Virus record (IMG/VR): IMGVR_UViG_3300048930_000687
Origin: a virus
Length of the DNA stretch: 38,989 nt
Direction: 5' to 3' (one strand)
In this document: in pieces, positions 1 to 34,501 of the stretch
How the letters are laid out: every line of letters begins with the position of its first letter
How positions within the stretch are numbered: position 1 is the stretch's first letter
Position numbers and translations under genes: made by a program
Notes under the pieces: generated by a model
Told to the model about the DNA's origin: nothing
What the model saw: only the letters and a program-made list of their open reading frames with translations
Database searches by the model: none

Positions 1-127
1 CGGTCACGCGTGAAAGCGTCACCGCTTGCCTCCGTACCAGGTCGATTGCGTGTTGCCGAGCGCGGCACGTCGCAGTTGCTCGTCGAGGTATTCGAGCGCG
101 CCGAGGTCGCAGCGTGCTGGCGCCATG
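1..127. repeat. Terminal direct repeat, identical to 38863-38989
   Basis: Read directly: cggtcacgcgtgaaagcgtcacc...gctggcgccatg occurs at both window ends. Confidence 0.9.
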
Positions 128-2763
128 GCCAGGTAGATGCGGATGCCACGAACGGACGTGCTGGCGAGCGACTTGTGGGTGGGGCTAGTGTCGACCCATA
201 CGAGCTTGGCGGCGTATTGCCTGAGTAGGCGTGCGTTGCCGATCGCGGCATCTCTGCCGTATCTGCGTCGGACGAGTTCGACGGCGGCGCTCACGCGAAT
301 GATGAGCGTGCCGTCCAGCGCTCCGGGCGTCATGACTAGGCTGGGATCTTTGCTTTCTCCTGCGGCGCTGCCGAGTTGTTCGAGGAAGGTTTCGAGGTTG
401 GTCTTTGACTCGTCGCCGCCTTCGAGGGTTTGTTGGACGCCGACTTCGAGGGCGAGCTGGATGTTGGTGTCGTTGAAGAGGTCGTTGTCTACGTCGTTTT
501 GGGCGTGTAGGAGGCCGTAGGCGATGTAGGTGAGGGCGAATTCGAGGCGGGGGCCGCCGCGGGCGTTGGCGGCGGTTTTGGCGAGTTTGTGGGCGCGTTG
601 GAAGCGTGACTGGTGGTCAGCCTCAGACAGGGTTAGGGCGCATTGGGCTAGGTGGTGGGCGTATGCCCAGTTGGGGGCGGATTGGGTTGCGAGGTAGGTG
701 GGGGTGTTGCCGCGGTCTTCCTGGAGGATGAAGTACAAGGGGCCGCGGGATAGTGCGGCGGCGTCTTCGGTGAAGCCTTCACCGGCGACGATCAAGGGCG
801 AGTTGAGGATGTAGGCGTGGTCTTTGGCGGCGATGCCGCTGCCGCGCCATTTGATGCCGAGGTCGTGGTGCTTGCGGAGTTGGCTGTCGTCGATGCTGCC
901 GGGTCGGTATTCGTCGAGGGCGGCGAGGCGGTTGTTGAGGTTGGCGAAGCTGCTGTCGTACTGGTAGGGGGTGAGGTTGGGTGCCTTGCGCAATCGTGCG
1001 CTTGGGTGGCCGGTGGTGAGGGCCAGGACCAGCTCGATGCTGCTGCTCTTGCCCGACTCTCGTTCGCCTGTGATGTACAGGAACGGCAACCGGTCGCCAA
1101 GGAGTGGTGTGAGGCGGGGGCTGAATGCGCTGGCGAGGCCGTAACCGATGAGGGCCATGGCGGCGCTGGGCGTGATGAGGGACAGCAACTGCCGGATGGT
1201 GTGCCGGGCTGCGTCTACCTGGTCTGGTGTGCCGGGTTTGAGGTTGCGGTAGGCGGGGCCGGGGTCGAGCGGCGTGCCGGCGTAGAACAGGTGCTCATGC
1301 AGCGTGTCCTGGTAGAGCGCGGTCCATTGGTCGTTGATCTTGTGCAGCCCATAGGTGGTGACTCCCCTAGCGATGGGGAGTTTGGGGCTGTTGGTGAGGA
1401 TGAACTGGCGGATGTAGGCGATGTCGCTGTTGCTGTTGGTGAAGACGACGGCGTTGTGGCTGCTGATCTCGGCGAGAAGGTCGCGGCGGCTGCTCCAGGC
1501 TTTGGCGGGTAGGTCGATGGTGTGCCGGGTGTGGGTGTTGATGGCGAGGGTGCCGCGGTGCCCGATGGTGCCGTCCGGCCATTCGAGGGTGGTGGTGGGT
1601 GTGAAGACCCAGTTGGTGAGTTGGGTGTAGGTGGGGCCGTTCTGGTTTTCGCGGACGCGGGCGTAGCCGCCTTGTTGGATGGTGATGGGGGCGTCGGCGG
1701 TGGTCTTGGCGAGGTCGTCCACGGTCTCTCCCCCGCCCTGGTTGGTGTGGATGGTGGCTGTTGGAGTGGTGCGGATGGGTGCGTTCTTGCCTGCGGTCTC
1801 CCGGTACGCCCAGTCGAGTGCGGCTAGTGCTTCGTCGTGTGGGATTGGTCCGGCGGTGCGGGCTGGCAGGATGTCGGCGAGGTGCGTGGCGAGCCGGTTG
1901 GCCTCGCTTCTGGGGAGGTTGTTTTCGCGGCAGCTCATGGCGAGCCATAGGAGGCTGCGGTGGCGGCCTACGTCGGTCTTGGTGACCTTGCGGGCGACGC
2001 GCTCGGCGCGTTCCAGGAGCCGCTCGGCGATGCCGGCGGGTGGCACCCAGTCGTCCGGCGTGGTGTTGGCTGGGGCTTCGCTGTAGGTCTCGAGGTCGGG
2101 ATCGAGCTGGAAGAACTCGATGACCTCTTGCACCGTGTAGGCGGCTTGTTGGTCGAGGTGCAGGATGCGGCTTTGGATGGGGTCGGCTTTGGTGTGCCAG
2201 AAGCCGGGGATGCGCATGACCCGACTTAGGTTGCGGCTTTCGGGTTCGCTGCCGAACTTCGCGATGATCTGCGCCTGCAACCGCTTCCACAGGTGCACGT
2301 CGCCGCAGTCGACGACTACCCAGTAGGCGTGGAGCTTGTGCGGGAGGCTGGATTGGACGATGAGGCTGGGTTTGAGTTCGGCGTCCTCGATGAGCGTGAG
2401 GTTCGCGCCGGGCTTCGCTTCGTGGTCGTATTCGATGAAGAAGGCGCTGGTGTTGATGATGTCTGCGTCGGTGATGGCGCCTTTGCCGTCGATGACGATC
2501 TTCTGGTGGCCGGTGGTGGGGTTGGGGGTGTTGACGACCATGTAGGCGCCGTACCCATCCGAATTGAGGCGGGTCATGCGTTTGAGGGTGCGGTGGCCGG
2601 GGTCGGTGATCTCGGCGAGGTCACCCCAGAGGCTGATCGTGGGACTGCCGCGCTTGATGAACCGGAACTCCGTGGGTGCCGTGCCGTGGAGGGCCTGGTA
2701 GTACCGACTGGCTTGGCGCCAGTCGGTCTCTAGGAGTGGTTGGGGGTCGCGTCGGCGGGTCAC
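19..2763 (-). CDS. Replication protein: primase-polymerase-like N-terminal region fused to P-loop (D5/SF3-like) helicase domain
   Basis: 914-aa ORF with GTG start; motifs FFIEYDHE and MRIPGFWHTK resemble archaeo-eukaryotic-type primases; Walker A-like GERESGKSS; 3' end abuts the iteron region. Confidence 0.65.
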   Translation of the reverse strand: MTRRRDPQPLLETDWRQASRYYQALHGTAPTEFRFIKRGSPTISLWGDLAEITDPGHRTLKRMTRLNSDGYGAYMVVNTPNPTTGHQKIVIDGKGAITDADIINTSAFFIEYDHEAKPGANLTLIEDAELKPSLIVQSSLPHKLHAYWVVVDCGDVHLWKRLQAQIIAKFGSEPESRNLSRVMRIPGFWHTKADPIQSRILHLDQQAAYTVQEVIEFFQLDPDLETYSEAPANTTPDDWVPPAGIAERLLERAERVARKVTKTDVGRHRSLLWLAMSCRENNLPRSEANRLATHLADILPARTAGPIPHDEALAALDWAYRETAGKNAPIRTTPTATIHTNQGGGETVDDLAKTTADAPITIQQGGYARVRENQNGPTYTQLTNWVFTPTTTLEWPDGTIGHRGTLAINTHTRHTIDLPAKAWSSRRDLLAEISSHNAVVFTNSNSDIAYIRQFILTNSPKLPIARGVTTYGLHKINDQWTALYQDTLHEHLFYAGTPLDPGPAYRNLKPGTPDQVDAARHTIRQLLSLITPSAAMALIGYGLASAFSPRLTPLLGDRLPFLYITGERESGKSSSIELVLALTTGHPSARLRKAPNLTPYQYDSSFANLNNRLAALDEYRPGSIDDSQLRKHHDLGIKWRGSGIAAKDHAYILNSPLIVAGEGFTEDAAALSRGPLYFILQEDRGNTPTYLATQSAPNWAYAHHLAQCALTLSEADHQSRFQRAHKLAKTAANARGGPRLEFALTYIAYGLLHAQNDVDNDLFNDTNIQLALEVGVQQTLEGGDESKTNLETFLEQLGSAAGESKDPSLVMTPGALDGTLIIRVSAAVELVRRRYGRDAAIGNARLLRQYAAKLVWVDTSPTHKSLASTSVRGIRIYLAMAPARCDLGALEYLDEQLRRAALGNTQSTWYGGKR

Positions 2764-2773
2764 GGCGGTTCGG

Positions 2774-4564
2774 TTACCTGGCCTCGTGTACGCGGGTGAT
2801 GAGGGTGCTGTCGGTCTGCTCGTCGGGTTTCAGGGTGTTCACCCAGAAGTCGCGCCGGGAGAGGGTGGTGATGAGGTGAATGTGGTTCTTGGCGCGCGTG
2901 ACGCTCGTGTAGTAGAAACGTCGGGGGCTGAACTTGACGGGTTCGGGTTGGTAGAGGATGACCGTGTCCCAACCTGATCCTTGGGCTTTGTGGACGGTGA
3001 CGCAGTACCCGAGCTGCATGAGGTCCTTGGCGTCCTCGATGGCGATGGTGCGCGTGCCTTCGCCGGGTCCGAAGTCGATGTCGACATCCACACCGTTGCT
3101 GCCGGTGACTTGGCCGGTTTGGCCGTTGAAAACGCCGTATGTGTAGTCGTTGTCGGTGACGAGGACTTTGTCGCCGATGCACACGCCGGCGTCCGGGTAG
3201 TTCCCACGCGAGTCTTTGGCGCTCCAGACGCGGTACGTGAACAGTGGGATGCCGGTCGGGTTGAGGAGGTCTTGGATGTGCTGGTTGAGGGCTTCGCGGG
3301 TGTCGTTCTTCCAGGTGACGACTTGCCATTCGTGATGTGCCAAGCGGGTGCTTGAGTCCCGGATTAGGGCGTTGAAGTCGTTCTCTGCGGCGTCCGGGTC
3401 GATGCCGAACCGCAAGTACACGCCGCGTTCCGGCTCGCTGGGCACGTACGCGTCTGGGGCTTGGGTGCGGATAGCCTCCGCGAACTGGTGGATGCTCACC
3501 TGACCGGCCTGGCGGTAATTGATCTCTAGGTGCACGTGCGGAAGACCGAGCGCCAAGTAGTCCGAGAAGGGCGTGCCGTACCCGATGGGTGGCAGTTGAT
3601 TCGGATCGCCGACAAGTATCAGCGTGCTGGTGGGCAACATGGCCTTGACGACCTTGGCCAGCAGCCAGTTGGGGATCATGCTGGCCTCGTCGAGCACGAC
3701 GATGTCTTCCATGAGGGGGATGGGCACGGTGTTGGGGCCTTGCAGGCCGAGGGCGCGGTGGATGGTGCTGCAGGCGACCCAATCGACGCCGTCCTCACCC
3801 ATGGCTTCTTGGCTGCGCATGGCGGCCTTGCCGGCGAACGCCATGACGCGCATGGTCTTGCGGAGCTTGCGCGCAGCGTGAGCGATGGCGGCAGTGGATT
3901 TCGTCTTGCCCGTGCCGGCCCCGCCCGTGAGGGCCATCAGGCGCGTGCCGCTCAGGGCGGTGCTGACGGCCTGTAACTGGTCCTCGTTGAGCGGTCCGAG
4001 GTCGAGGCTGGAAACGTCGGGTAGGGTGAGTTGTTGGGCGCTGGTGAGCACGTCCTCGAACAGTTCGGCGAGGTCTTGTTCGGCGCGGAGTTCGGACGGT
4101 AGCCAGGCGCGGTCGTGGTCGATCTCGACGCCGGCGAGGCGCAGTTTGGGGTTGCGGAGGTCGGCGCGTTCACGCTGCTTATCGAGTTCCCAGAGCCTGA
4201 GGGGACCGTACTGCTCGAGGATGCTCTGGTTCCCCGCCGCGTGCCGGCGAGGGTGGTCGAGGCCGACGTCGAAGTCGCCAAGGGCGACGGCGTCGGCTTT
4301 CTTCCAGTTGATGCCACGCACGTGCATGAGTTCGTAGGGGTCGAAGCTGATGAGCGCGAGGATCTCGGATTCGCTCAGGTGCTCGTCGCTTGACTTGAAC
4401 AGGTCGGGTTGCGTGAGGAGCTTCGTGAACAGCGTGTCGTGGACGCCGTGTTTGCGCCAGTCGTCGCGCATCTCGTTGTAGTGGCGTTCGATGCGGCTTG
4501 CGAGGCGGCGGCCGATGCCGTGGAGGTCGTAAACGTGCCTGTGGCGGGTGATCGTGGTAGTCAT
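2774..4564 (-). CDS. RecD-like SF1 DNA helicase
   Basis: 596 aa; Walker A GGAGTGKT, Walker B VVLDEASM, C-terminal TVHKAQGSGWD motif typical of RecD/TraA-like helicases; AAGGAG-type RBS before the ATG. Confidence 0.8.
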   Translation of the reverse strand: MTTTITRHRHVYDLHGIGRRLASRIERHYNEMRDDWRKHGVHDTLFTKLLTQPDLFKSSDEHLSESEILALISFDPYELMHVRGINWKKADAVALGDFDVGLDHPRRHAAGNQSILEQYGPLRLWELDKQRERADLRNPKLRLAGVEIDHDRAWLPSELRAEQDLAELFEDVLTSAQQLTLPDVSSLDLGPLNEDQLQAVSTALSGTRLMALTGGAGTGKTKSTAAIAHAARKLRKTMRVMAFAGKAAMRSQEAMGEDGVDWVACSTIHRALGLQGPNTVPIPLMEDIVVLDEASMIPNWLLAKVVKAMLPTSTLILVGDPNQLPPIGYGTPFSDYLALGLPHVHLEINYRQAGQVSIHQFAEAIRTQAPDAYVPSEPERGVYLRFGIDPDAAENDFNALIRDSSTRLAHHEWQVVTWKNDTREALNQHIQDLLNPTGIPLFTYRVWSAKDSRGNYPDAGVCIGDKVLVTDNDYTYGVFNGQTGQVTGSNGVDVDIDFGPGEGTRTIAIEDAKDLMQLGYCVTVHKAQGSGWDTVILYQPEPVKFSPRRFYYTSVTRAKNHIHLITTLSRRDFWVNTLKPDEQTDSTLITRVHEAR

Positions 4565-4662
4565 TTGGTGCTCCTTTGTGACGGTGCTTGCTTGGTTCCG
4601 TACGTGAGGGGCAAGGCCGGGCGTCGAGGTTCAGTCGACGCCCGGTTGCTCGCGTGCGGGGA

Positions 4663-5289
4663 TTAGGTGGGGATGCCTGCCGGGGCCTCGGTCGCGGCGG
4701 CGGTTGGCGGCTTGCGGGTGGTGGGCTTCTTCGGCAGCATCGTGGCCGCTGCCGCCTTCGCGGCGTTGTAGCCCTTCTTGTTGATCGTGAGTTCGAGCAT
4801 GCAGCTCTTGCCGATCAGGTTCTCGCCGTTCACACTCAAGCCGAGTACGTTGCCCTTGACGCCGTCGAAGGTCGTCTCGCCGGTGATGAACCACTTGCCC
4901 TTGACGTGACCCTTCTCCGGGTCGTCCTCCGTGGGCTTGAAGTAGTGGTCGAGCGGCAGGTTGGCGATTACGTCGGTGGCGAGGTCCCAGCCGATCTTGT
5001 CGCCGTCGTCACCGCCGACGAGTTCGCGACCGAGCAGGGCGCAGATGCGGTTGTAGAACTTCGCGCCGTCGTTCGTGCTGACCTTGACGAACTTCTCGGT
5101 CCACGTGAGGTCTTCGCCGAAGTCCCACGTGAACTCGGCGGACTGGTAGCGCAGGCCTTCGCCCTCGTTCTGGTCGTCGGTCATGTATTCCTTGGCCGTG
5201 TCGAGGTAGAGGCTTTTGAGCTTGGCCTCGTAGTTACCTGCTTCGATGGGGGTGTAGGCGCTTTCTTGCTTGCTGGTGGGGAGTGCCAT
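4663..5289 (-). CDS. Hypothetical protein, possibly DUF669-like phage ssDNA-binding protein
   Basis: ORF-track ORF 4663-5298; ATG at residue 4 taken as start; N-terminal PIEAGNYEAK resembles DUF669 N-termini (from memory, unverified). Confidence 0.45.
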   Translation of the reverse strand: MALPTSKQESAYTPIEAGNYEAKLKSLYLDTAKEYMTDDQNEGEGLRYQSAEFTWDFGEDLTWTEKFVKVSTNDGAKFYNRICALLGRELVGGDDGDKIGWDLATDVIANLPLDHYFKPTEDDPEKGHVKGKWFITGETTFDGVKGNVLGLSVNGENLIGKSCMLELTINKKGYNAAKAAAATMLPKKPTTRKPPTAAATEAPAGIPT

Positions 5290-5372
5290 TTGTGTCACTT
5301 TCCGGGCCGCTTGGGGCCGCTCGTGTGGACTGTTTGGCGTGAGTGGGGTCGGGTGTGCCGTGCCACGGCGGG

Positions 5373-5711
5373 TCAGCTGTTGGTGCCTCCTTGCGCGATG
5401 AGTTCGGCGCGTCGCAGTGCGGTGATCTCGCGGGCGAGTTTGTAGTCGAGGTCGGCGAGGGTGAACGCGAGTTGGGCCGCTCGGAGTGCGTCTTCGGCGT
5501 CATTGACGGCCAGGCGTTCGGTGCGAGTCACCATGTCCAGCTCGGCCTTGCGGGCAGCCTCGTTCTTGCCTTGGAGGCCGTTGAAGACCAGCTCGGTTTC
5601 GTGCTCGACCAGGTTGCGTTTGGCGAGGTTGAGCGCCGCTTGGGCGTGAGCGAGGCCGACGTGCGCGGTCTTGAGCGCCTCGGTGGCATCGTTGAGGTCG
5701 TAGATGTTCAT
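5373..5711 (-). CDS. Hypothetical protein (112 aa, helical)
   Basis: Internal ATG of track ORF 5373-6125, preceded by GGAGGA; the N-terminal Arg-rich extension in the track is probably spurious. Confidence 0.55.
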   Translation of the reverse strand: MNIYDLNDATEALKTAHVGLAHAQAALNLAKRNLVEHETELVFNGLQGKNEAARKAELDMVTRTERLAVNDAEDALRAAQLAFTLADLDYKLAREITALRRAELIAQGGTNS

Positions 5712-6178
5712 GCGGTCCTCCCAAGCACCGGCCGGCCGGTGCCCCGGCAGTCCGGACAGACGTCCCAGTCGTCGTTGACGCAGCCGCCGCCGACACTCCG
5801 GGAGCGGGCGACGATCTCGCCGCGACCGTTGCAGCGGGCGCAGGTGTTCAGGCTCTTGGCGAGCGCGCGGGCCTTCGCGGTTTTGGCCTGGCGCCGCACC
5901 TCGTTGACGACGACGCGTAGCAGCGCGACCTCGTCGAGATCGTTCGTGGCGAGCAGCCCGTGCTCGTCCAGGGCCGTGAGTAGCGCGTCCGTGGCCGTCA
6001 CGGGGTCGATGCGCGCCTCGGGTCGCGCGACAAGCGGACCGTTGCAGGTTGGGCATTCCTCCGGCATCGTGTCGCCGGGGGAGTCCCACGTGTCGCCGGT
6101 GTAGAGGCCGTCGACGCCGTGCCAACCGTCGCAGGTGGGGTCGGTGCAGAGCAGGGTGAGCGTGTGGCGGGGGGTCAT
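5708..6178 (-). CDS. Zinc-finger protein with DnaJ-like CxxCxGxG repeats
   Basis: 156 aa from internal ATG of track ORF 5708-6433; motifs CTDPTCDG, CPTCNG, CARCNGRG, CPDCRGTG; stop overlaps next start (ATGA). Confidence 0.55.
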   Translation of the reverse strand: MTPRHTLTLLCTDPTCDGWHGVDGLYTGDTWDSPGDTMPEECPTCNGPLVARPEARIDPVTATDALLTALDEHGLLATNDLDEVALLRVVVNEVRRQAKTAKARALAKSLNTCARCNGRGEIVARSRSVGGGCVNDDWDVCPDCRGTGRPVLGRTA

Positions 6179-6294
6179 GCGCGCCACCGCCTCACGGCGA
6201 CCTGCACGAGGTCGTGCAGGGCCGCCAACACCCACAACAGCAGCCCCGGAAGGAAGAACAGCAGGAACGCCCACATGGTCACGTCGAGGTTCAT
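6175..6294 (-). CDS. Small hydrophobic peptide (39 aa, one predicted TM helix)
   Basis: Not in ORF track (below size cut-off); my translation MNLDVTMWAFLLFFLPGLLLWVLAALHDLVQVAVRRWRA; GGAGGG before the ATG; ATGA overlaps with both neighbours. Confidence 0.4.
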   Translation of the reverse strand: MNLDVTMWAFLLFFLPGLLLWVLAALHDLVQVAVRRWRA

Positions 6295-6506
6295 GACGCC
6301 CTCCGGTCCGGCTCGAGGCTGCGCGTCCACACGTCAACGACCTCGCGTTCGACGGGCAGGAGCTGATGTGGGCCCTTGCGGAGGCGCTCGACGACCGCCT
6401 GCCTGTCCGCTTCGGCGGCGAGGAGCACGTCACCGGTCTCCTTGGCGCGGAGCATCAGTTGATGAGCGGTCCATCCGTGGGCGCGGATGGCGTCGAGGCG
6501 GCTCAT
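6291..6506 (-). CDS. Hypothetical protein (71 aa)
   Basis: ORF-track ORF; start overlaps upstream stop (ATGA), consistent with a coupled operon. Confidence 0.45.
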   Translation of the reverse strand: MSRLDAIRAHGWTAHQLMLRAKETGDVLLAAEADRQAVVERLRKGPHQLLPVEREVVDVWTRSLEPDRRAS

Positions 6507-6763
6507 CGCGTCACCGCTTCGCTCATGCGACGCGACGGGAAGGACGGCGCAGCGTTCGCGCTGAGGTCGGCCTCGACCTCCTGCGCGTGTTGCCTCAGCG
6601 TGGCTACTCGCGCCAGCAGGTCCATCGCGTCCTTCGTGCGGCCGTGGTCGAGGTGTCCTTCGGCTCTGGCCTTGAGGTCCGCGATGTTCTCCTGCAGGTC
6701 GTGGAGCTGCTGCCGCAGGTCTTGGCTGCGAGTCTTCCCTGGCGACTGTGCTACGTTGGTCAT
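6503..6763 (-). CDS. Hypothetical protein (86 aa, coiled-coil-like)
   Basis: Internal ATG (MTNVAQ) of track ORF 6503-6790, preceded by GAGAGGAAAG Shine-Dalgarno-like sequence. Confidence 0.5.
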   Translation of the reverse strand: MTNVAQSPGKTRSQDLRQQLHDLQENIADLKARAEGHLDHGRTKDAMDLLARVATLRQHAQEVEADLSANAAPSFPSRRMSEAVTR

Positions 6764-6796
6764 GAGCTTTCCTCTCTCCCGCGCGTCCACGCGGGT

Positions 6797-7150
6797 CTAG
6801 GAGCCTGAGCGCGCCACCTGTTGGCGCGCTCCCTTTACGCCCGCCTGGCGGGCGTGGAAGGCTTGAGAGAGTTCCGGTGACAGTTCGCCGCGTTCGACCT
6901 GGTCGAGCACCGACTTGGCGATGCGCGCCCTGCGTGCGCCTGGGAGGCGCTGGCCGTACTTGTCGAGCAGCACGTACGCCTCGTTCAGGCTGTACCCGCG
7001 GTCTTGCAGGGCCTTGGCGTCGAGTGGCCGGTCGTCTGGTGGGGCGATCACGTTGATGGCGTCGCCCGCGAGGCGTTCGGTTAGGGCGCGTTCTAGGGCG
7101 GCGCGTACCGTGGCCTCCACGGTGGCCTTGAGCACCTCATCAAGACTCAC
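6797..7150 (-). CDS. Hypothetical protein (117 aa)
   Basis: GTG start inside track ORF 6797-7225, preceded by AAGGAGG; GTGA overlap with upstream gene stop. Confidence 0.5.
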   Translation of the reverse strand: MSLDEVLKATVEATVRAALERALTERLAGDAINVIAPPDDRPLDAKALQDRGYSLNEAYVLLDKYGQRLPGARRARIAKSVLDQVERGELSPELSQAFHARQAGVKGARQQVARSGS

Positions 7151-7329
7151 GACGACACCTCCTTGGCCTTCCGGTCCGTGCCCTCCCGGGCAACTCGCCG
7201 CGCCTCCATTTCTGGGATTCGCCACTGGCTACCGACCTTGACCGCGTGGATGCGGCCTGCCTGGATGAGCCTGTAGACGCTGAACTCGCTTACGTTCAGC
7301 GTCTCTGCCAGCTCTTTCGGGGTTTTCAT
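7147..7329 (-). CDS. Excisionase-family HTH DNA-binding protein (candidate Cro/Xis-like early regulator)
   Basis: Motif AETLNVSEFSVYRLIQAGRIHAVKVGSQWRI typical of excisionase/MerR-type HTH; divergent from the repressor gene; start chosen at MKTPKE (alternatives at 7344 or 7383). Confidence 0.65.
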   Translation of the reverse strand: MKTPKELAETLNVSEFSVYRLIQAGRIHAVKVGSQWRIPEMEARRVAREGTDRKAKEVSS

Positions 7330-7422
7330 CGACAGGCTGTCCATACGCTGCACAGCATAGACCAGCAGTAGATGCAGAGTCAAGGCTGAGCGTCTATGCT
7401 ATGAACTGATGGTAGATGCGCC
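7330..7422. promoter_or_regulatory. Divergent intergenic switch region with candidate operators
   Basis: Perfect 9-bp inverted repeat AGCATAGAC / GTCTATGCT (about 7354-7362 and 7392-7400); GTAGATGC direct repeat; TTGACT -35-like hexamer on minus strand. Confidence 0.5.
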
Positions 7423-7791
7423 GTGATGCTAACTGTTGCTAACCTCGACTGGATGGCGAAAGCGTCGACATCCAGCACCCTTCGTCCCAAGTGGGGGCGC
7501 AAGCTCGCGGCTCGACGCACCGAGCTCGGTCTCAGCCTTGGGGCGATTGAGGAAATGACCAACGGCGTTGTCTATACCCAGTTGCTGTATCGCCTCGAGA
7601 ACGGTCGCATGAACCCCAGGAACCTCAAGGCTCATCAGTTGGGGGCTCTGCTGACCGCGCTAGAGTGGACGCACGAGGACTGGGATGCGTTGCTTGGGCA
7701 GCCTTCTGGAACTACCGCTGGCGTCGGTACTCCAGTCGAGACCGCGAAGGGTCACGGCAGCTCACACCTGGTTATCCCAGGGGGGTGGTGA
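7423..7791 (+). CDS. XRE-family HTH domain protein (N-terminal part of a cI/LexA-like repressor)
   Basis: HTH-XRE-like region GRKLAARRTELGLSLGAIEEMTNG...; ORF ends TGA at 7789-7791 immediately after a G6 run; track start is GTG, ATG at 7426. Confidence 0.7.
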   Translation: MMLTVANLDWMAKASTSSTLRPKWGRKLAARRTELGLSLGAIEEMTNGVVYTQLLYRLENGRMNPRNLKAHQLGALLTALEWTHEDWDALLGQPSGTTAGVGTPVETAKGHGSSHLVIPGGW

Positions 7792-8165
7792 TGGTGCCGG
7801 TCTACGGCTCAGCAAACGGCGGCAAGCCATCCGAATACGGCATCCCAGTCGACCCCGAACTAGTCAGAGGCGACAACACCCGCGCCTACCAAGTAGACGG
7901 CGACAGCATGAACACCGGCACCGAAGAAGGCATCCGAGACGGAGACTGGGTACTCGTAGACACGAGCCTCACCAAAGGCATCCCCGGCCGAGTCTTCCTC
8001 CTCGAGATCATCGGCGACGGCATGACCGTCAAACGCCTCCGCGTATTCGACGGCGAATGGCGCTTCGCCAGCGACAACCCGGAGGTCGGCGAGAGCTGGC
8101 GTGGCGACCAAGTCCGCGTCATCGGCCAGGTGTACGGCAAAGTCAACTTCAAGGCGATCCATTGA
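7791..8165 (+). CDS. S24 (LexA/cI-like) peptidase domain protein (C-terminal part of a split repressor)
   Basis: Motifs VPVYGSANGG, DGDSM (Ser nucleophile context) and TVKRL (Lys); ATG overlaps upstream stop as TGATG; frame is open for 42 codons upstream of the ATG. Confidence 0.8.
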   Translation: MVPVYGSANGGKPSEYGIPVDPELVRGDNTRAYQVDGDSMNTGTEEGIRDGDWVLVDTSLTKGIPGRVFLLEIIGDGMTVKRLRVFDGEWRFASDNPEVGESWRGDQVRVIGQVYGKVNFKAIH

Positions 8166-8222
8166 GGCAAGCAGCAACACACTGAAAAGGGTGCACGTGA
8201 ACCAAGGATGGAGGAATCCAGA

Positions 8223-9350
8223 ATGAGTAGCCGCCCTTCTGTCCAAAAAGGGGACCCTGCCAAACTAATACCGCTGAGCGACCTCGCATTTGATCCCGAG
8301 AACCCGCGGCTGCCCAAAGAACTTGATGGATCGGACGAGGCGGCGGTGCTGGACTGGATGATAAAATACGGAGCCATCAATGAGCTGATGGCCTCGATTG
8401 GTATGCAAGGTTTTTTCACTGCGGAGGCCCTGCTCGCGGTTCCGAATCCCAGCGGCGGCTACTGGGTTGTGGAAGGCAACCGACGACTGGCGGCGGCAAA
8501 GCTACTTGTAAACCCAAACCTGGCGCGATCGCGGGCGAACTCAATAAGGGACACCGTAGCTGCGGCGGATCATGCGCCAACCAGGCTTCCGGTCATTGTC
8601 TACCCGGACCGCTCGAAGATCCTCGCTTATCTGGGGTTCCGCCACATTACAGGGGTGAAGCAGTGGGATTCTCTCGCAAAGGCTCGCTACCTTGAGCAGA
8701 TGCGAGTGCAGATGACCAACGACGGTGTTCAAGAAGCTGATATGAATCGCAACTTGGCGAAACTAATCGGAAGTCGTTCCGACTACGTCGAGAGGCTTCT
8801 ATTCGGCTTGAAGGTATACGACCGGATTGTCGAGGAAGTCCTAACTGATTCAGAAGTCAAGGTCGACGAGTCCGAGATCAACTTCTCCGTCCTCACCACC
8901 GCGCTGAACTATACGAGTATCGCCGACTTCGTGGGTTTGAATCGGGAGCAGGGTGTAGAGGGTGTCTCTCGAGAACGCCTTCGCGAACTCACTCAATGGA
9001 CGTTCGAGAAGAGCAAGGACCGACCATCTAGGGTCGGTGAGTCCCGCAACCTTGCCCTCCTCGCACAGGTCGTAGCCGAGGCAGACGCTCTCCAGGTTTT
9101 CCGAGACGGGGCGCCATTGAAGGAGGCGGCCGTTTACGCGAAAGGACCCGGCAAGTTGATGCGCGAGTCCTTGAGCGCAGCACGCAACAACCTTCGCGCG
9201 GCATTTGGTGCCGTCCTGACTGTGCCTGACCTAAACGAATCTGACCGGGCCCGAGCTGAGGAAGTAAGTACTGCAAGCAATCGACTCTTGAAGTTGATTG
9301 AGAGCGTCCTATTGGACGCGGCCAACAAGCAGGATGGGGGCCATGAGTAA
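8223..9350 (+). CDS. ParB/Srx-like N-terminal domain protein with unknown C-terminal region
   Basis: Motif VVEGNRRLAAAKLL resembles the ParB GxRRxxAA box; GGAGGA before the ATG at 8223; visibly lower G+C than surrounding genes; 8-nt overlap with next gene. Confidence 0.65.
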   Translation: MSSRPSVQKGDPAKLIPLSDLAFDPENPRLPKELDGSDEAAVLDWMIKYGAINELMASIGMQGFFTAEALLAVPNPSGGYWVVEGNRRLAAAKLLVNPNLARSRANSIRDTVAAADHAPTRLPVIVYPDRSKILAYLGFRHITGVKQWDSLAKARYLEQMRVQMTNDGVQEADMNRNLAKLIGSRSDYVERLLFGLKVYDRIVEEVLTDSEVKVDESEINFSVLTTALNYTSIADFVGLNREQGVEGVSRERLRELTQWTFEKSKDRPSRVGESRNLALLAQVVAEADALQVFRDGAPLKEAAVYAKGPGKLMRESLSAARNNLRAAFGAVLTVPDLNESDRARAEEVSTASNRLLKLIESVLLDAANKQDGGHE

Positions 9351-10371
9351 CGCCAGGCAGCTGCTTACGGCTGAACGGCGACCGACTATCCGGAAGATGG
9401 ACACGCATATGCACGCAGACTTTGCTGAAGTGCTATGCCTGGTGAACCCCGACCATGACATCTCAAGCTCGGACATACTCGACCGCTTCGCAGAGCGACG
9501 TGACCTGGGCGAGGAGTTCGAGGAGGCCGACATTGATCCGGAGTTAGCATTTGGTGTTGCCGGCAACTACGAACTGCCTACTGAGCAGCCCGTGGATGGG
9601 GAGTGCGAAGAGATCGATCAAATTAGTGAGCAACTCGTGCTCCGCCAGAGGCTCCTGGGAAGCGCCTATCCTTTTCGGCTCACGGTAACCGGATCGAGCT
9701 TCCGCCTCGCTCGCAAGCAGAAGCTCCACAAAGTGCACCTACTCTACCTGTTCCTACTGATTGCTTCGGATCTCACTCGCATCAACAACCCCACCTACTC
9801 GCGACGGTTTACTAGCGCATTTGAGCGGCTTGCAGGCGAGATGATGCGACGGCTGCTACCGTCCGGAGCCCAGGTTCACCTCTTTGGCACCGCCGCACAG
9901 AAGGGTGAATTGTTCCACGGTGGTCGCCTCGGTGATCGAATGGAACTCTTGGCTAAGCACTTACGCGGTGTCTCTAAGCTGGATAGGAACCATTCTGGGT
10001 CCTCTGGCGACGCCGGCATTGACATCGTCGGCTGGGTGCCAATGGGCGATGCGGGCGACGGCCTGCTAGTTTTGATGGGCGGTGCAACGTGCTCATACAA
10101 GAACTGGGAGAACAAGGTCTATAGTACGTCTTACGGCAGATTGAAGGAAAAGGTCCAGATTCGCGTCCCTAGCGTGAATGTGACATTCATTCCGTTTTTC
10201 ATGCGTACGTCCTCCGGCGATTGGCATAGGGCCGACGAACTCGGTGAAGCTCTCCTGGTGGACAGGCTCCGTCTCATCAAGGGTTTGGCTAAGGCCGGCG
10301 ACGTAATTGAATCCATCGGCGTAAAGCGGGAGCTCCGCGACATTCTTCAAATAAGAGAGACCACCGTCTAG
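9343..10371 (+). CDS. Hypothetical protein, candidate nuclease partner of the methyltransferase
   Basis: 342 aa; acidic N-terminal region; segment GDAGIDIVGW...GGATCSYK loosely resembles Mrr/PD-(D/E)xK-type catalytic cores; sits immediately upstream of a C5-MTase gene. Confidence 0.5.
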   Translation: MSNARQLLTAERRPTIRKMDTHMHADFAEVLCLVNPDHDISSSDILDRFAERRDLGEEFEEADIDPELAFGVAGNYELPTEQPVDGECEEIDQISEQLVLRQRLLGSAYPFRLTVTGSSFRLARKQKLHKVHLLYLFLLIASDLTRINNPTYSRRFTSAFERLAGEMMRRLLPSGAQVHLFGTAAQKGELFHGGRLGDRMELLAKHLRGVSKLDRNHSGSSGDAGIDIVGWVPMGDAGDGLLVLMGGATCSYKNWENKVYSTSYGRLKEKVQIRVPSVNVTFIPFFMRTSSGDWHRADELGEALLVDRLRLIKGLAKAGDVIESIGVKRELRDILQIRETTV

Positions 10372-11444: not shown

Positions 11445-11546
11445 ATGACCAGCAGAGTATGTATAGACGGTGAGGGCACCAATCGTTTACTTGACGGTCG
11501 GTTGACTCGCGTCACCGTCGGTTTGGTCCCGGACGATGTCCCGTAA
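11445..11546 (+). CDS. Small upstream ORF (33 aa) overlapping the integrase start
   Basis: ATG preceded by GGGGAGGAATA; my translation MTSRVCIDGEGTNRLLDGRLTRVTVGLVPDDVP; stop lies 8 nt inside int. Confidence 0.3.
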   Translation: MTSRVCIDGEGTNRLLDGRLTRVTVGLVPDDVP

Positions 11547-12831
11547 GCGCAATCGTCGCGCGCCGGGCGAGGGCGCCATCTACGAACGCCCCGACCGCGG
11601 CACCTGGGTGGCGGCCATCGTGATCGCCTTCGACGAGCACGGACGCCCAATCAGACGCACGAAGACCACGCGCACGAAGACCGAAGCCATGGCCTGGCTC
11701 ACCGCCCAGCAGGCAGCGCTCAACAGCGGCTTGAAGCTCGGGGAGAACGCGACCCTGCAGGAGGTCGTCGACGAGTGGATGGCCGCCGGCCAAGCCCTGC
11801 GCGGCTGGGGTACCAGCACCGTGACGTCATACCGAGCCACCATCGCGAAGATCCTCCCACGCCTCGGACGCATGCGGGCCCGCGACCTCGACCCAGCCCT
11901 CATCGAGCGAACCCTCCTCGACCTCACCCGCAACGGCGCCTCACCCGCCATGGTGGCTCGCGTCCGCAGCCACCTGGCCATGGCCTTGAGGTACGCACTA
12001 CGCAAGCGCCTAATCGAGCGCGACCCGATGCTTGGCGTGGACGCACCGACCACACCGGCTCCACAGATCCAACGATGGAGCGAGGCGGAGGCCGGCAGGA
12101 TCGTCCGCGAATGCCTCGACCGGGACGACCAGACCGCCAGGTACGTGCTGGTGGCACTCGGCACCGGTCTCCGAACGGAGGAACTGCTGGGTCTCGCCTG
12201 GTCGAGCGTTGACCTCGAGGAGCGCATCCTGCTTGTCGAGCGCGTGGCGATCGAGGTCGCCGGCAGGAAGGAGCTCCGGGCGGGCGGCAAGACCGAAGCC
12301 GCCAACCGCCCGGTGCCGATCGACGAGCTGACAGCCGCAGCCCTGGCGCGGCAGGCCGAGCATGTGGAGCACTTGCGCGGCGCCCGGGCGCACCTGGATG
12401 CCAAGCGGGTCGCCGAGGGCCTCCAGTCGCTCGGCTGGGCTGATCTCGACCTGGTGTTCCCGTCGTCGGTCGGAACGGTCGTGAGCCGCAAGACGCTCCG
12501 GGCCGGGTTCGGCGATCTGCAGGAGCGCACGGGCGTGACGCGCATCAAGCTCTACGCCACGCGATCCACGCACGGGAGTCTGTTGGCCGATGCGGGAGTC
12601 AACCTGCACGCGCTGGCCGAGCGCATGGGGCACGCCGACCGGCGTTACCTGGCCAAGAAGTACCTGCGGGGAAGCACGTCGGCGCACCGCGCAGTCGCCG
12701 AGCAGATAGGGCAGATCCTTGGTAGCACGCTGGTAGCAGGAGCCTCTCCGGAGAGCGTCTCGGAAGGTCACGAACCGGCAGGAGAGGGAGCGCGGAACAC
12801 GCGGGAAGTGCGACGGGAGGCCAGTAATTGA
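11536..12831 (+). CDS. int: Tyrosine-type site-specific integrase
   Basis: 431 aa; N-terminal arm-binding-like region, core with GLRTEELLGLAW, C-terminal HGSLL / MGHADRRYLAKKY consistent with the R-H-R-Y catalytic arrangement; followed by a tRNA 3' fragment. Confidence 0.9.
   Translation: MSRKRNRRAPGEGAIYERPDRGTWVAAIVIAFDEHGRPIRRTKTTRTKTEAMAWLTAQQAALNSGLKLGENATLQEVVDEWMAAGQALRGWGTSTVTSYRATIAKILPRLGRMRARDLDPALIERTLLDLTRNGASPAMVARVRSHLAMALRYALRKRLIERDPMLGVDAPTTPAPQIQRWSEAEAGRIVRECLDRDDQTARYVLVALGTGLRTEELLGLAWSSVDLEERILLVERVAIEVAGRKELRAGGKTEAANRPVPIDELTAAALARQAEHVEHLRGARAHLDAKRVAEGLQSLGWADLDLVFPSSVGTVVSRKTLRAGFGDLQERTGVTRIKLYATRSTHGSLLADAGVNLHALAERMGHADRRYLAKKYLRGSTSAHRAVAEQIGQILGSTLVAGASPESVSEGHEPAGEGARNTREVRREASN
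12721..12744. repeat. Direct repeat copy A (GGTAGCACGCTGGTAGCAGGA), candidate integrase arm-type site
   Basis: 19 of 21 positions identical to copy at 12969-12992; contains GGTAGCA twice 11 bp apart. Confidence 0.4.
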
Positions 12832-12869
12832 CTCGCGGTACGGGCCGGGGCAGGCATGCGCGCGCCCAT

Positions 12870-12913
<44 letters not shown>

Positions 12914-20751: not shown

Positions 20752-23616
20752 TCAAGCTCCAGCTCCCGTCAGTCCAAAATTGCGCTCGAGGCGATCCAGC
20801 CTCGGGCCGAGGTGACGCCTGTACAACGCCTCGAACAACGCGTTTGCCTGCCGGGCGAACGCCTGCTCATTCACCGGATCGGAAGGTGCGCCGTGGTACT
20901 GGTTGCTCTGGTTGACCGTGAAGTTCAGGTTTATGGCAGGCACGGATGCTCGAGCACGCTGTTGCTCGTCGCGACGGCGCTTCTCGGCGTCACGATTTCC
21001 ACCAGCGAGCCCACCGAACAACCCGCCTAAGATGGGCAGCAGGCCAGACAGCACCATGCCCCACGGGCCACCAACGAGCGCCCCGAGGATGTTCCCGCCA
21101 GCACCAAACAACCCACTAACGATGCTGCCAGCATCACCCGTTTGGATGCCCTTCACGAGCGTGTCCGTGAACCCAATACCGGCACTGATTACCGTGTCAC
21201 GGAACTTCTCCGCGGCTTCTTCCTGCGCCTTCTGGAACTTCGACCACTCATCTTGAGACATGCCGCCGATGGTTGCCGTTGGCGTAATGCCCAACCCGAC
21301 CGCGGCGGCAACATTCGCGGACGGCTCGATGCTCAACGCCACCGGCACACCCTCACGCTGCAAGCGGTCAAGCTCGGCTTGCAACTCGTCCCGGAGGGCA
21401 CGCGCCACGGCACGCCCCAGCTCGGTACCTGCCGTGTCCAACGTCCGCTGCGCCGCCTGAAGTTCTGCACGCACTTGAGCGATGCTTCGCAGCCCCTCAT
21501 CGGCTACCTGCGCCGCGGGAGTGATGCTCAACCCAACAGGCGCGGCGACAGTCGCAATCGGTTCTGGCGTGGGGATCGTGACCTTCTCCGGCAGCACCGC
21601 GAACGCGTCCGCCGACAACTTCACGCCGTCACGCAACCGCGACAGTTCCTCTTGCAGTCGCGTCACCTCGGCGGAGGCGTCCAAGAAGGCTTCGCTGGTC
21701 ACGTCCGCAGCATCCTTGCGGCGTTGCGCGTCCTCGAGTTCGCGTTGCACGGTGTTGATGCTCCGAAGCGTCCCGGCGTTCACGACCGCCGTCGGGTTGA
21801 TACTCAATGCCTGAGGTGTGGCGACCTGCGCCATGGGACTGATGTTCAGCGAGGTGGTGGACGCGTCCCTTACGCGCTCCATGAGCGACTCGATGGCCTC
21901 CAGCTTCGCCACCGTGTCCTGGTACTGCTCACTGTCAATGCCGAACTCGGACAGCGCCGCCGTGGCCTGCTCGCGGAGTTCTTCGACGCGGGGTTGCAGG
22001 AGCGCGAATACCTCACCGGCGTCCTTGATCCCGAACCGCAACTCGGCTGTGAGCCTTGCCGCCCAGCGCTTCGCGTCGGCGGCTGGATCGGGAATCTCGA
22101 TGCCCTTCATACTCACCGCGAGGTTGTTCGCCGCGGTGGTCGCTGCATTGAGGTCCTTGATGAAGTTCGGAACGTCCGAGGTTGGGCCGGGAATCGGCAT
22201 CGTACTGACCTTCTCAATGCTGCCGTCGACGGCCTTCAACTGCGTTTGTAGCGTCCGCAGTTGCGATTCGGCCTGATCTAACGTCTTGATGTCCACGTTG
22301 GCGGCACCGAAGCTGAACAACTGCCCGAAGAAACCCTTGTTGGCGAACGCGATCACGTCCGCTTCAACGCTCTTGATGAACGCCTGTTGGTTCTGAATCG
22401 TGACTTCGAGGACACGCTTCTGGCGGTTGAGGGCTTCGAGCGCGGCGGTGCGCTCGGCTTCGCTCGTGATGACCAGCGAGTTGCGGTAAGACTCCATGCT
22501 GCCTACGAGGTTGTCGAAAGACTCCTGAGAGGCTTGCCGCGAGCCCGCACCGGCGTCCATCGCACGACTAAGCCCCGCGTAAGCTACGGCGGCGGCTGTC
22601 AAGACCACGCCGATGATCCCGAACGCCGAGTTCAACCCCAGCACGGCGGTCTTCAACAGGGTGAAGCCTTCAACCAGTTTCGGTAGGAGCGTCAGGAGCG
22701 TGCCGAATCCCACAAGGATAGGCCCGGTCGCGGCCAGGGCGATGCCTACGCCGACCAGGATGTTCTGCGTGCCCTCATCGAGGTTGATGAACCACTCCGT
22801 AGCCTTCTGGGTGGCACTCACGAGCTTGTCGAAGATCGGCAGGAGGCGCTGCCCGACGATGTCGGCAACCTGGCTGAAGCTGTCCTTGAGGCGGTTGACG
22901 CGACCCGCGACCGTGTCGGACTGTGCGGCCATCACGCCGTAGAACTTGCCGCCTTCGCTCGTCATGTTCCGGAACGCCTGCTCTACGGCGGGGAACCCGA
23001 CCTTACCGGCCGACACGAGTTCTTGCACTTCGCCCTCGGTCTTGCCGAGAACGCGGCCGAGTTCCGTGTAGATCGGGATGCCACGCGAGGCGAGACGCTG
23101 AAGGTCGAGCGTCGCCACGCGCCCCGTCAACTGCATGCGGCCGTATGCCTCGGTCAAGTCCTCGATCGGCGTCTGCACACCAGCGGCGACATCGCCAAGC
23201 ATGCTGAGGGTCGGCACGAGGTCTTCCGCTTCCGTGCCGAACGCGGCAAGGATGCGCGTACCCTCAGTGAGCGATTCCCACGAGAATGGCGCGTTAGCAC
23301 TGAACTCGTACAGCTCATCAAAGGCGGCTTGGGCGCGGGTCGTGTCGCCGATCAGGACGTTCAAGCTGGCGCTGAACGTCTCTAGTTGCATCGCGCTGCG
23401 TATGCCAGCGACACCGATGGCTGTCAGGGGCGCAGTCAGGGCCACAGTGAGGCGCGTACCGACGCTCTGCAGGTTCTTGCCGATGCCACCGAGCTTGTCG
23501 GCCATGTTGGCAACGGCGGTGGTTGTCGCCTGTTCGGCTTGAGCGAGGCCGGTCTTGAGTTGTGCCTGGTCGAGCTTGACGTGTAGGACTGCTGCGCCGA
23601 GACTGGCGTCTGCCAT
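20752..23616 (-). CDS. Tail tape measure protein
   Basis: 954 aa, Ala/Gly-rich, helical with internal degenerate repeats; preceded by the chaperone G/GT pair; GGAGGTG RBS. Confidence 0.85.
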   Translation of the reverse strand: MADASLGAAVLHVKLDQAQLKTGLAQAEQATTTAVANMADKLGGIGKNLQSVGTRLTVALTAPLTAIGVAGIRSAMQLETFSASLNVLIGDTTRAQAAFDELYEFSANAPFSWESLTEGTRILAAFGTEAEDLVPTLSMLGDVAAGVQTPIEDLTEAYGRMQLTGRVATLDLQRLASRGIPIYTELGRVLGKTEGEVQELVSAGKVGFPAVEQAFRNMTSEGGKFYGVMAAQSDTVAGRVNRLKDSFSQVADIVGQRLLPIFDKLVSATQKATEWFINLDEGTQNILVGVGIALAATGPILVGFGTLLTLLPKLVEGFTLLKTAVLGLNSAFGIIGVVLTAAAVAYAGLSRAMDAGAGSRQASQESFDNLVGSMESYRNSLVITSEAERTAALEALNRQKRVLEVTIQNQQAFIKSVEADVIAFANKGFFGQLFSFGAANVDIKTLDQAESQLRTLQTQLKAVDGSIEKVSTMPIPGPTSDVPNFIKDLNAATTAANNLAVSMKGIEIPDPAADAKRWAARLTAELRFGIKDAGEVFALLQPRVEELREQATAALSEFGIDSEQYQDTVAKLEAIESLMERVRDASTTSLNISPMAQVATPQALSINPTAVVNAGTLRSINTVQRELEDAQRRKDAADVTSEAFLDASAEVTRLQEELSRLRDGVKLSADAFAVLPEKVTIPTPEPIATVAAPVGLSITPAAQVADEGLRSIAQVRAELQAAQRTLDTAGTELGRAVARALRDELQAELDRLQREGVPVALSIEPSANVAAAVGLGITPTATIGGMSQDEWSKFQKAQEEAAEKFRDTVISAGIGFTDTLVKGIQTGDAGSIVSGLFGAGGNILGALVGGPWGMVLSGLLPILGGLFGGLAGGNRDAEKRRRDEQQRARASVPAINLNFTVNQSNQYHGAPSDPVNEQAFARQANALFEALYRRHLGPRLDRLERNFGLTGAGA

Positions 23617-27749: not shown

Positions 27750-28742
27750 TTACGGAACGAGGACGCTGAACGGGTAACGCGTCGACGCGTTGTCGTTCAC
27801 GCGGTTGATCGGGTTCGGCACTTGCCATGCCACGCGGAACACCGCGCGCAGCGCAACCATGTCCTGCTGCGCGAGGTTGTACACGATGTTCCCCGCGCCG
27901 TCCTGAATGACCGCCTCGGTGAGAATCTTGTACGTGACGTCCTGCCGGACGGCCCACACGAGTTGGCTCCAGTCGCCGGTGAACATGAGTGCCTGGGCGG
28001 GGTCCATGCTGCCGTTGCGCGGGAAGAACACCGGTTCGCCATCCAGCTCGTACCGGCTGGCGCCCTGAATGTCTTGCCTGTCCGCGCTGCGGTGGAAGAG
28101 GGGAATGCCGCCGGGGACGGCCGTGGAGCCGTTCCAGACTTTCTCCCGTAGCCCACGCAACTGGGCGCGCATGCTCATGGCGGCAACGTGACCGGACGCC
28201 ATGAACCCGTCTTCCTCGATGAGGGCAATCGTGCCGCCTACGCCGATAACGGCGTCGTACAGGTCACCGCCACCACCGACGATGCTGCTGAGGTCGACGG
28301 TGTGACTGGCGCTGGTGGCGGCAGTCAGGATGTCGTCCGGCCAGGCGCTTGGGGCGTTCTCGCCGAACAGGATGGCGCGATCGAAGGTCTTGCCGATGGC
28401 TTCCTCGATGCGGGGCCTGACTTCACCCCAAATGTCGTAGTCGGCGTCATCAAGGACGGCTTCGGAGATGGGGACGATGACGGCGAGTTCTTCCGCGTCG
28501 AGGTACTTGTTTGCCCAGTTCTGCTTGGTGGTGGATTTCATGCCGGTGTCGCCGTCCACGAAGTACGCCTCGGGCAGTACGGAGAGGACGGGGAGGCGGC
28601 GTTGCTTGCGGCTCATGTTCGGGGCGCGTGTGGCGAGTTGCATGATGCTGGACTGTTGCACCATGCCTTGGAGGATTTCGCGGCTGACTTCTTCGGGCAT
28701 GAGTGCCTGCGTGCCGCTACGGTCGATGATGTTCACGGGCAT
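27750..28742 (-). CDS. Major capsid protein
   Basis: 330 aa; follows the scaffold gene in SPP1-like order; composition typical of HK97-fold capsid proteins. Confidence 0.75.
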   Translation of the reverse strand: MPVNIIDRSGTQALMPEEVSREILQGMVQQSSIMQLATRAPNMSRKQRRLPVLSVLPEAYFVDGDTGMKSTTKQNWANKYLDAEELAVIVPISEAVLDDADYDIWGEVRPRIEEAIGKTFDRAILFGENAPSAWPDDILTAATSASHTVDLSSIVGGGGDLYDAVIGVGGTIALIEEDGFMASGHVAAMSMRAQLRGLREKVWNGSTAVPGGIPLFHRSADRQDIQGASRYELDGEPVFFPRNGSMDPAQALMFTGDWSQLVWAVRQDVTYKILTEAVIQDGAGNIVYNLAQQDMVALRAVFRVAWQVPNPINRVNDNASTRYPFSVLVP

Positions 28743-28754
28743 GTCTTGTTCTCC

Positions 28755-29273
28755 TTATTGGCGGCCGGCTGCGTGTCTGATGGCCGCGTTCATGTCGAAT
28801 CCGCGGGTGCCACCGCCACCACCAGTGGTGGGAGCTGGGCCTGGGCGCGGGTCCGGTTGTGGGGCGAGGGTCGGCGTGTCCTTCACGAGCGTCTCGACTT
28901 TGACGTTGCCGTCTTTGTCAACGTACTTGTCGGTGTTCTGCTGCACCTTGTAGAGGGCGTAGTCCACGTCGGTGACGTGTTTGGCGAGTTGGGCGCGCAT
29001 GAGTGCCTCGGTTGTCTCGGCGCGGGCGGCCTCGAGTTGTTTGGCGAGGTCGTCGCGTTCGGCTTGGAGGCGTTCGGTGTCACCGAGTTTGGCGCGGTCC
29101 TCGGCTTTCTTCAGTTCGTCTTGGAGGCGTCGTTCGAAGGCTTTCTCGGCCTTGCTGAGGCGCGCGGTGACCATGCTGTCGAGTTCGGCTTGCGTGAAGG
29201 TCTTGCCGGTGTCTTGGTTGGGGGTTTCCCCGCTGTTGGCCTGCGGGTCGGCGGTTGTGGGATTGTCGGTCAT
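28755..29273 (-). CDS. Scaffolding protein
   Basis: 172 aa, charged coiled-coil sequence (ERRLQDELKKAEDRAKLGDTERLQAERDDLAKQLEAARAE); directly upstream of the capsid gene. Confidence 0.7.
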   Translation of the reverse strand: MTDNPTTADPQANSGETPNQDTGKTFTQAELDSMVTARLSKAEKAFERRLQDELKKAEDRAKLGDTERLQAERDDLAKQLEAARAETTEALMRAQLAKHVTDVDYALYKVQQNTDKYVDKDGNVKVETLVKDTPTLAPQPDPRPGPAPTTGGGGGTRGFDMNAAIRHAAGRQ

Positions 29274-29319
29274 GTGGTGGCCGCGTACTTGCTAGGGCGC
29301 CCGCGTAGGCGCCACGAGA

Positions 29320-29358
29320 GGCCAAAAGAAAACCCCGCCGGGTAGGCGGGGCGGTACT
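29320..29358 (-). terminator. Rho-independent terminator-like hairpin inside the late gene block
   Basis: Minus-strand sense: CCGCCCCGCC-tacccg-GCGGGG followed by TTTTCTTTTGG. Confidence 0.5.
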
Positions 29359-29377
29359 GCCAAGGATTGTGCTGGGG

Positions 29378-29751: not shown

Positions 29752-29769
29752 GCGGCAATGGTACGACGC

Positions 29770-30441: not shown

Positions 30442-30521
30442 ACAGACCTCCTGTGTCTGTCGCGCCTGGGCGGTGGTCACACACCGAGTCCCAGGCACAC
30501 TAGTTTATCACGTGCAGCACG

Positions 30522-32757: not shown

Positions 32758-32773
32758 GTTGGGCTCTCCTTTC

Positions 32774-34478: not shown

Positions 34479-34501
34479 GATCGCTCCTCTCTTGTTGTGG
34501 T

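Follow-up and report, generated by a model that had tools for sequence, protein, structure and literature searches.

A 127-bp terminal overlap of assembler k-mer length in a 38.9-kb temperate phage genome

The sequence analysed here, hereafter the window (the whole stretch of 38,989 nt), begins and ends with the same 127 bases. The question that this raises is whether the repeat marks the physical ends of a linear virion DNA or merely the place at which a circular genome was opened when it was written down as a line. The answer determines how the genes at and across the two ends are to be read.

The overlap and its length

Bases 1-127 recur with 100% identity at 38863-38989, just as the first-pass annotation of this DNA had it, and the longest exact prefix that is also a suffix measures exactly 127 nt. 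An exact match of this length in 39 kb cannot have arisen by chance. The flanks of the two copies are unlike each other (GCCAGG... after copy 1, ...ACGTGAC before copy 2), and no third copy of the 127-mer was found within the window. The self-alignment that had been suggested as a check was carried out as a whole-window scan for direct and inverted repeats; it returned the terminal match as the sole long repeat, the next-longest being imperfect matches of 24-41 nt. Copy 1 (1..127) consists of an 18-nt intergenic tail and the last 109 nt of the primase gene (19..2763, minus strand), the TGA of which lies at 21..19, so the gene does end within the repeat as had been claimed. The remaining 109 of 127 nt are thus coding, and the TerS/TerL genes are 4.4-4.7 kb distant. 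If copy 1 is single in the molecule and copy 2 (38863..38989) is a redundant written copy, removal of the latter leaves a unique circle of 38,862 bp.

The length of the overlap equals the largest k of the JGI metagenome workflow, in which metaSPAdes is run with k = 33, 55, 77, 99 and 127; this match in k rests on the workflow description, and the assembler version for this particular sample may differ. According to the CheckV paper, terminal-repeat lengths of metagenomic contigs cluster at assembler k values (Extended Data Fig. 3 legend), and the explanation offered there is that a circular template broken at a random location acquires a k-length repeat at both ends. We are highly confident that the repeat in our window is likewise a k-mer overlap, left by the assembler when it opened a circular assembly, and that the window represents one complete temperate phage genome of ~38.9 kb. 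In such a scenario, a de Bruijn graph assembler (metaSPAdes with a final k of 127) would open a circular path anywhere and leave the k-mer overlap behind. The 127-mer would then be single in the actual DNA, so that the window would hold one full genome copy with 38,862 unique bp. The assembly graph would close upon itself because the sequenced molecules joined each part of the genome to its neighbours. Candidates for such molecules are circles, excised or in replication, as well as concatemers and virion DNA in circularly permuted form.

In its exactness, its k length, its arbitrary break and its completeness after trimming, the window resembles the k-mer overlap contigs known from CheckV and IMG/VR practice as 'DTR contigs'. 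We see no difference from typical examples, the one extra point being that the window is cut elsewhere than the public record described below. A k-length terminal repeat is an already known assembler signature and holds no new phage biology; the value of the overlap is that of a completeness flag only, and its consequences are a matter of bookkeeping. One 127-bp copy is to be removed before gene calling, repeat analysis and length or coverage statistics are attempted, as otherwise the annotation will contain the primase 3' end twice, once as a truncated duplicate, along with a 'terminal repeat' that is spurious. Since the window would be one complete replicon of 38,862 unique bases, gene neighbourhoods, also those that extend across the ends, can be read as contiguous.

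Break points in other records and samples

Taken by its sequence alone, the overlap is nevertheless also a perfect direct terminal repeat. The DNA in the virion could thus perceivably be linear and T7-like, with fixed ends at 1 and 38989 and a genuine 127-bp repeat at both of them. Short direct terminal repeats of 150-250 bp are real in phages (that of Microbacterium phage Hyperion, for example, measures 203 bp), and the repeat in our window begins in a motif-rich non-coding region. This possibility can be judged against further records of the phage.

JGI contig 3300048588|Ga0498926_0002783 (38,989 bp, same strand), found through exact-protein look-ups, is the same sequence as the window at a rotation of 15,683 bases, and in the window the 127-bp overlap has been made anew at a different cut. 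The relation (record = window + 15683) was obtained from the ranges of three of its loci, L001, L008 and L010, and holds for instance for the 183-aa gene, which occupies 38049-38600 in the window and 14870-15421 in the record. L001 (20.5 kb) is 100% identical to window 9738..1 and then to 38989..28049, with 127 bases common to the two segments; when compared with the doubled unique 38,862-base sequence, it gives one unbroken match of 20,552 nt. L008 and L010 likewise cross the window junction with one copy of the 127-mer. The locus that reaches the end of the record (L006; record position 38989) starts at window 23306, and the start of the record corresponds to window 23180 by arithmetic, the first 4,143 record positions lying outside the loci compared. 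The record is longer than the unique sequence by exactly 127 bases. Given this excess and the offset of 15683, the public record must represent the same circle, opened within the tape-measure gene, with its own terminal overlap falling at window 23180..23306 (start again by arithmetic). In keeping with this, L006 carries an 850-aa tape-measure fragment that runs off the record end, and joining the two ends of the record restores the 954-aa ORF. The same ORF is intact in the window (20752..23616, minus strand; PHROG tape-measure matches) and in a 39,085-bp contig (L003/L004), and is cut by the ends of the JGI record.

Records from further samples extend this picture. Sample 3300048589 contributes a contig of 1,925 bp (L002) that passes through the junction with a single 127-mer and without any mismatch (100% identity). 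From sample 3300048834, the 39,085-bp contig Ga0498918_0004175 (L003, L004 and L009) matches the window at 100% identity throughout its first 36,028 positions, and its positions 1-15039 (L009) run from window 38388 through the junction to 14564, also at 100% identity. Its start at 38388, inside the 183-aa gene, is a third break point. Altogether, five loci (L001, L002, L008, L009 and L010) contain a single, internal copy of the 127-mer, and contiguity over the junction is seen in three samples. A 20,970-bp contig from sample 3300048837 (99.95% identical) ends at yet other positions, as does a 4,739-bp contig from sample 3300048589. Across four samples, contig ends fall at 23180, 38388, 15912/36881, 17462/22200 and 37252/314, with none common near the terminase genes. 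As the junction is crossed by other records and the tape-measure gene is intact in one of them, every position of the circle, both break points included, is internal to at least one other record.

These findings leave a vanishingly small probability for a true direct terminal repeat. Fixed ends were looked for and three break points were found in three full-length or partial records, with the junction internal in all others. In the public record of this contig the ends lie elsewhere and the 127-mer occurs once at this site, two further samples cross the supposed end, and the length of the repeat is exactly that of the assembler's k. On paper, the window resembles T7-like and other DTR phages in that a direct repeat ~100-200 bp long stands, without mismatch, at each of its ends; in contrast to those phages, its ends vary across records and samples, and the repeat extends 109 nt into the primase coding sequence, its inner boundary being about 4.7 kb from the terminase genes. 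In addition, those TerL relatives for which termini have been determined or are presumed package circularly permuted DNA (see below). The break in the window differs from that in the public record, and the position of the repeat is therefore without biological meaning; either the window or the public record has been re-cut after assembly. The exact junction pattern had no match among IMG/VR contigs.

A second conceivable objection is that the closure itself is false, in that the window is a fragment or a chimera, the ends of which share a 127-mer, for instance because long direct repeats flank a prophage or because a conserved segment served to join two related phages. De Bruijn assemblers can indeed close cycles through repeats of at least k, and strain variants do co-occur here, namely the 39,085-bp variant and the 99.95%-identical contig. 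However, the genome is without any other repeat of at least 127 nt, and the att-like element, which measures at most 66 nt, lies at 12.9 kb and thus at neither break point. Near-identical full-length contigs were obtained from two samples (100% over 36 kb), closing the public record restores an intact tape-measure ORF, and all expected modules are present, once each. A phage with an 89%-identical TerL that is otherwise mosaic is also found on a contig of similar size (38,446 bp). We consider a false closure extremely unlikely. Host DNA, which had been named as a finding that would speak against a closed genome if it continued beyond either end of the window, was not seen next to the phage sequence in any record compared. 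Taken together, the coincidence of 127 with k, the different cut in the public record and the crossing of the junction in other samples uphold the simplest reading of the first-pass annotation, namely a complete genome, circular or circularly permuted, that was written down with an overlap.

Despite its 100% identity over 36 kb, the 39,085-bp contig is 96 bp longer overall than the window. It is without the exact 98-aa protein (37323-37619) and the exact 183-aa protein (38049-38600), the gene for the latter being interrupted by the start of the record; two exact proteins are missing, so a strain-level difference would lie in the small-gene region (window 35554-38388).

Gene content, a candidate attachment site and the state of the sequenced DNA

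The module set is complete and comprises a repressor, an integrase with attP, primase, helicase, RusA, TerS, TerL, portal, MuF, scaffold, capsid, tail and tape-measure genes. As judged from these predicted functions, the genome is that of one complete temperate, siphovirus-like tailed phage, which agrees with the earlier claim that the window can be interpreted as one replicon. Its GC content is 64%; no tRNA gene was found in the window, and no lysin was recognised among the phage genes.

The early and replication genes run on the minus strand from 7344 down to 19 and encode an HTH_17 protein, small proteins, a DnaJ-zinc-finger-like protein, a RecD-like SF1 helicase of 596 aa (2774..4564; AAA_30, AAA_19 and UvrD_C_2) and the putative primase of 914 aa with a RepB_primase-like N-terminal domain. 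The identical helicase protein occurs on contigs from two samples. The primase ORF (third-position GC 0.84) matches RepB_primase with an E value of 2.8e-7, above the gathering score, as well as the PHROG 'DNA primase', and the identical gene call is found in the JGI records; no relative of it was found in species-representative genomes. Across the junction and past a non-coding region at 38601-38880, the minus strand continues with small genes, RusA (36388-36735) and the terminase, head, head-tail, tail, tape-measure and minor tail genes. The candidate small terminase subunit (34053..34478, 141 aa) has a weak HTH match and lies directly upstream of TerL (32774..34135; Terminase_6N/6C type), and homologous ORFs stand upstream of TerL in two other loci (L012 and L013). 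There follow a portal candidate (31432-32757), a MuF/SPP1 gp7-like minor head protein (30522-31445; PF04233, Phage_Mu_F), a scaffold protein (28755-29273) and, beside it, an HK97-type major capsid protein (27750-28742; Phage_capsid), all on the minus strand. A terminator-like hairpin of the same strand at 34640-34690 (CCCCGCCGT-cccccc-ACGGCGGGG, then TTTCCTTTG) follows a 206-aa gene within the 254 bp of non-coding DNA that precede the TerS candidate, and likely represents the boundary between the early/middle and the late operon.

The lysogeny arm forms a plus-strand block (7426-13827) with an HTH protein, a repressor, a low-GC island, an integrase and a DUF2335 protein. The genes for the HTH protein and the Peptidase_S24 (LexA/CI-like) repressor (7426..8165) diverge from the early operon, which begins at 7344 on the minus strand. 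The island (8208-11361; 57% GC vs 64%) contains three genes: the first encodes a 380-aa protein that resembles, in its N-terminus, PD-Lambda-5_A models of PADLOC as well as ParB-N-like PHROGs, the second a 324-aa protein (phrog_3984) and the third a C5 cytosine methylase that resembles DruM and type II methyltransferases. It is possibly a prophage-borne defence or modification cassette. The tyrosine integrase (11536..12831, 431 aa; Phage_integrase and Phage_int_M, XerC/D-like) is encoded by an ORF with a third-position GC of 0.84. The JGI gene tables list no gene over this ORF (window 11361-13101; L008 1464-3204; also in L004, L006 and L009), and an exact look-up of the ATG-start protein gave no match.

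Fifty bases past the integrase stop, the sequence GGTCAGGGGTTCGAATCCCCTCAGCTCCACCA (12881-12912) is identical to the 3' end of tRNA-Ala(CGC) genes on many metagenomic contigs, comprising T-arm, acceptor and CCA. The 32-nt match to the tRNA-Ala(CGC) 3' end was seen in all seven ARAGORN-called loci, eight metagenome loci having been checked. These 32 nt close a tRNA-like, plus-strand stretch of 66 nt (12847..12912), our candidate attP, which folds like a shortened tRNA and gives weak Rfam matches to mascRNA and to the tmRNA 3' end; ARAGORN calls no tRNA at 12847-12912. A terminator-like hairpin (GGACGGCGTC/GACGCCGTCC, 12929-12955) follows. The order of integrase gene and then 32 nt of a tRNA-Ala(CGC) 3' end is that of the tyrosine-integrase phages that integrate into tRNA 3' ends, with the difference that Rfam points to the 3' end of tmRNA (E 1.5e-7 for the att fragment). 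On the basis of this Rfam match, ssrA may be the integration target; we downgraded tmRNA as the source of the att fragment, since the same 32 nt end the tRNA-Ala(CGC) genes in the loci checked.

The candidate attP is intact and has phage DNA on both sides, an arrangement that would mark an excised or viral form. Since k exceeds the length of the tRNA-like stretch (at most 66 nt), an assembly can pass through it only if molecules with both phage arms joined were sequenced. We infer that the sequenced DNA included excised, replicating or virion forms. In another metagenomic contig (L087 1890-3255; Ga0182741_1000135, 117,384 bp), the gene for a 57%-identical integrase stands immediately upstream of the same tRNA-Ala 3' fragment, and no complete tRNA was called beside it. 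This stretch has the appearance of a junction, on the integrase side, between an integrated relative and its host.

Packaging, relatives and the region at the break

Given a closed genome, the form of the virion DNA is a separate question. The genome assembles as a circle without a consistent contig end. By tblastn, its TerL matches Microbacterium phages of clusters EA and EC (Antoinette, Knox, Golden and RobsFeet) as well as ~68-71-kb Mycobacterium phages, which we take to be members of cluster B. The termini of the four Microbacterium phages have been determined and are listed as 'Cir per', and Mycobacterium cluster B is presumed to be circularly permuted. These matches are at 27-36% identity and cover the ATPase half only, and at full coverage TerL is less than 31% identical to that of any isolate. 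A search against solved structures returned no terminase match, neither for the single sequence nor for a 29-sequence clade profile, and TerL is therefore without a structure-based packaging class. SPP1 and P22 are headful-packaged, circularly permuted siphoviruses, and with these, as with the Microbacterium EA/EC and Mycobacterium B phages, our phage shares the circular assembly and the order TerL, portal, MuF-like head gene; its TerL is of the Terminase_6 type. It is also alike in genome size to Microbacterium cluster EA (~39 kb); in contrast to the lytic EA and EC phages, it appears temperate (integrase and S24 repressor), and its host is probably not an actinobacterium. From these comparisons we lean, by a little more than an even chance, towards headful packaging, which would yield circularly permuted, terminally redundant virion DNA.

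Alternatively, the ends of the virion DNA could be defined elsewhere in the genome, by a cos site or by a direct terminal repeat longer than k that was collapsed in assembly, with the closure contributed by concatemers, intracellular circles or ligated cos ends. Intracellular DNA is sampled in bulk metagenomes, and any temperate phage forms circles inside its host, so that junction reads can stem from such circles or from concatemers. Phages with cos sites or long terminal repeats also assemble as circles when their concatemers or circles are sequenced. Moreover, the 254-bp non-coding stretch just upstream of the TerS candidate is the usual location of cos, and TerL is too divergent for a firm call of packaging type. 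What weighs against defined ends is that contig ends differ in four samples and have none in common near the terminase genes, that a Terminase_6N/6C TerL, which has its matches in Microbacterium clusters with circular permutation, is accompanied by a MuF gene, and that the genome lacks an HNH endonuclease as known from HK97-type cos machinery. On this evidence we regard ends defined elsewhere as possible, though less likely. A 167-aa protein with a weak PHROG match to HNH was considered as part of an HK97-type HNH/cos machinery and rejected, as it has neither the HNH motif nor a Pfam match.

The break in the window falls within a 280-bp non-coding region (38601..38880) directly downstream of the primase gene. 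Of the 13 exact copies of the octamer GGTCACGC in the genome, six are found in 38601-38887 (continuing into 1-24), together with five one-mismatch copies. They are arranged in two inverted clusters, 38618-38700 and 38806-38887, which flank an AT-richer core holding two CTCTTATGTA repeats, and a 24-nt element, CGGTCACGCGTGAAAGCGT[G/C]ACCG, occurs at 38619 and at 38863 (= window position 1). A promoter and terminator scan of the junction region found nothing. A 95-aa ORF at 38597-38884, which overlaps the primase stop in a GTGA, was discarded, as it is called in no record and lies over the motif-rich intergenic region. By its motif content, 38601-38880 is a candidate origin or operator rather than a genome end. 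It is conceivable that the region is a functional landmark, such as an iteron-type origin or a packaging start, and that the window was deliberately re-cut there, but we hold this to be improbable. If it were true, an iteron-type origin would serve an uncharacterised RepB-primase/RecD-helicase module in a phage of a Deinococcota-like host.

As to its relatives, a megablast search with 20 kb of the genome found no match among cultured phages. Metagenomic TerL homologues reach 89% identity, and the few that are named come from Trueperaceae and Anaerolineae MAGs; in genome collections, matches were obtained in Thermaceae and Thermomicrobium MAGs and in a Deinococcus lacus genome. The D. lacus locus (NBRC 112440; L038 872-11463, on a 1.98-Mb contig) encodes a RecD-like helicase that is 33% identical to that of the phage, a RepB_primase/D5_N protein, small genes and TerL, in the same module order. 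The junction between primase and late genes is internal in this locus, that of a distant integrated relative. A Deinococcota-like host is thus suggested as a lead, not as a result. The TerL region of D. lacus appears as two overlapping ORFs (9998-10591 and 10462-11463), and this TerL may be frameshifted or decayed.

The close TerL relatives in IMG/VR (L176-L178) have the terminase region alone in common with our phage, and they do not reach the junction. The phage on the 38,446-bp contig mentioned above (L011; Logan SRR22572392_45923) combines its 89%-identical TerL with a MuF protein that is 64% identical. It differs in having an SPP1_portal, a P22-type coat protein as opposed to the HK97-type capsid, and ParB_N/Mom genes upstream, and the comparison clearly shows that the modules around the terminase are mosaic.
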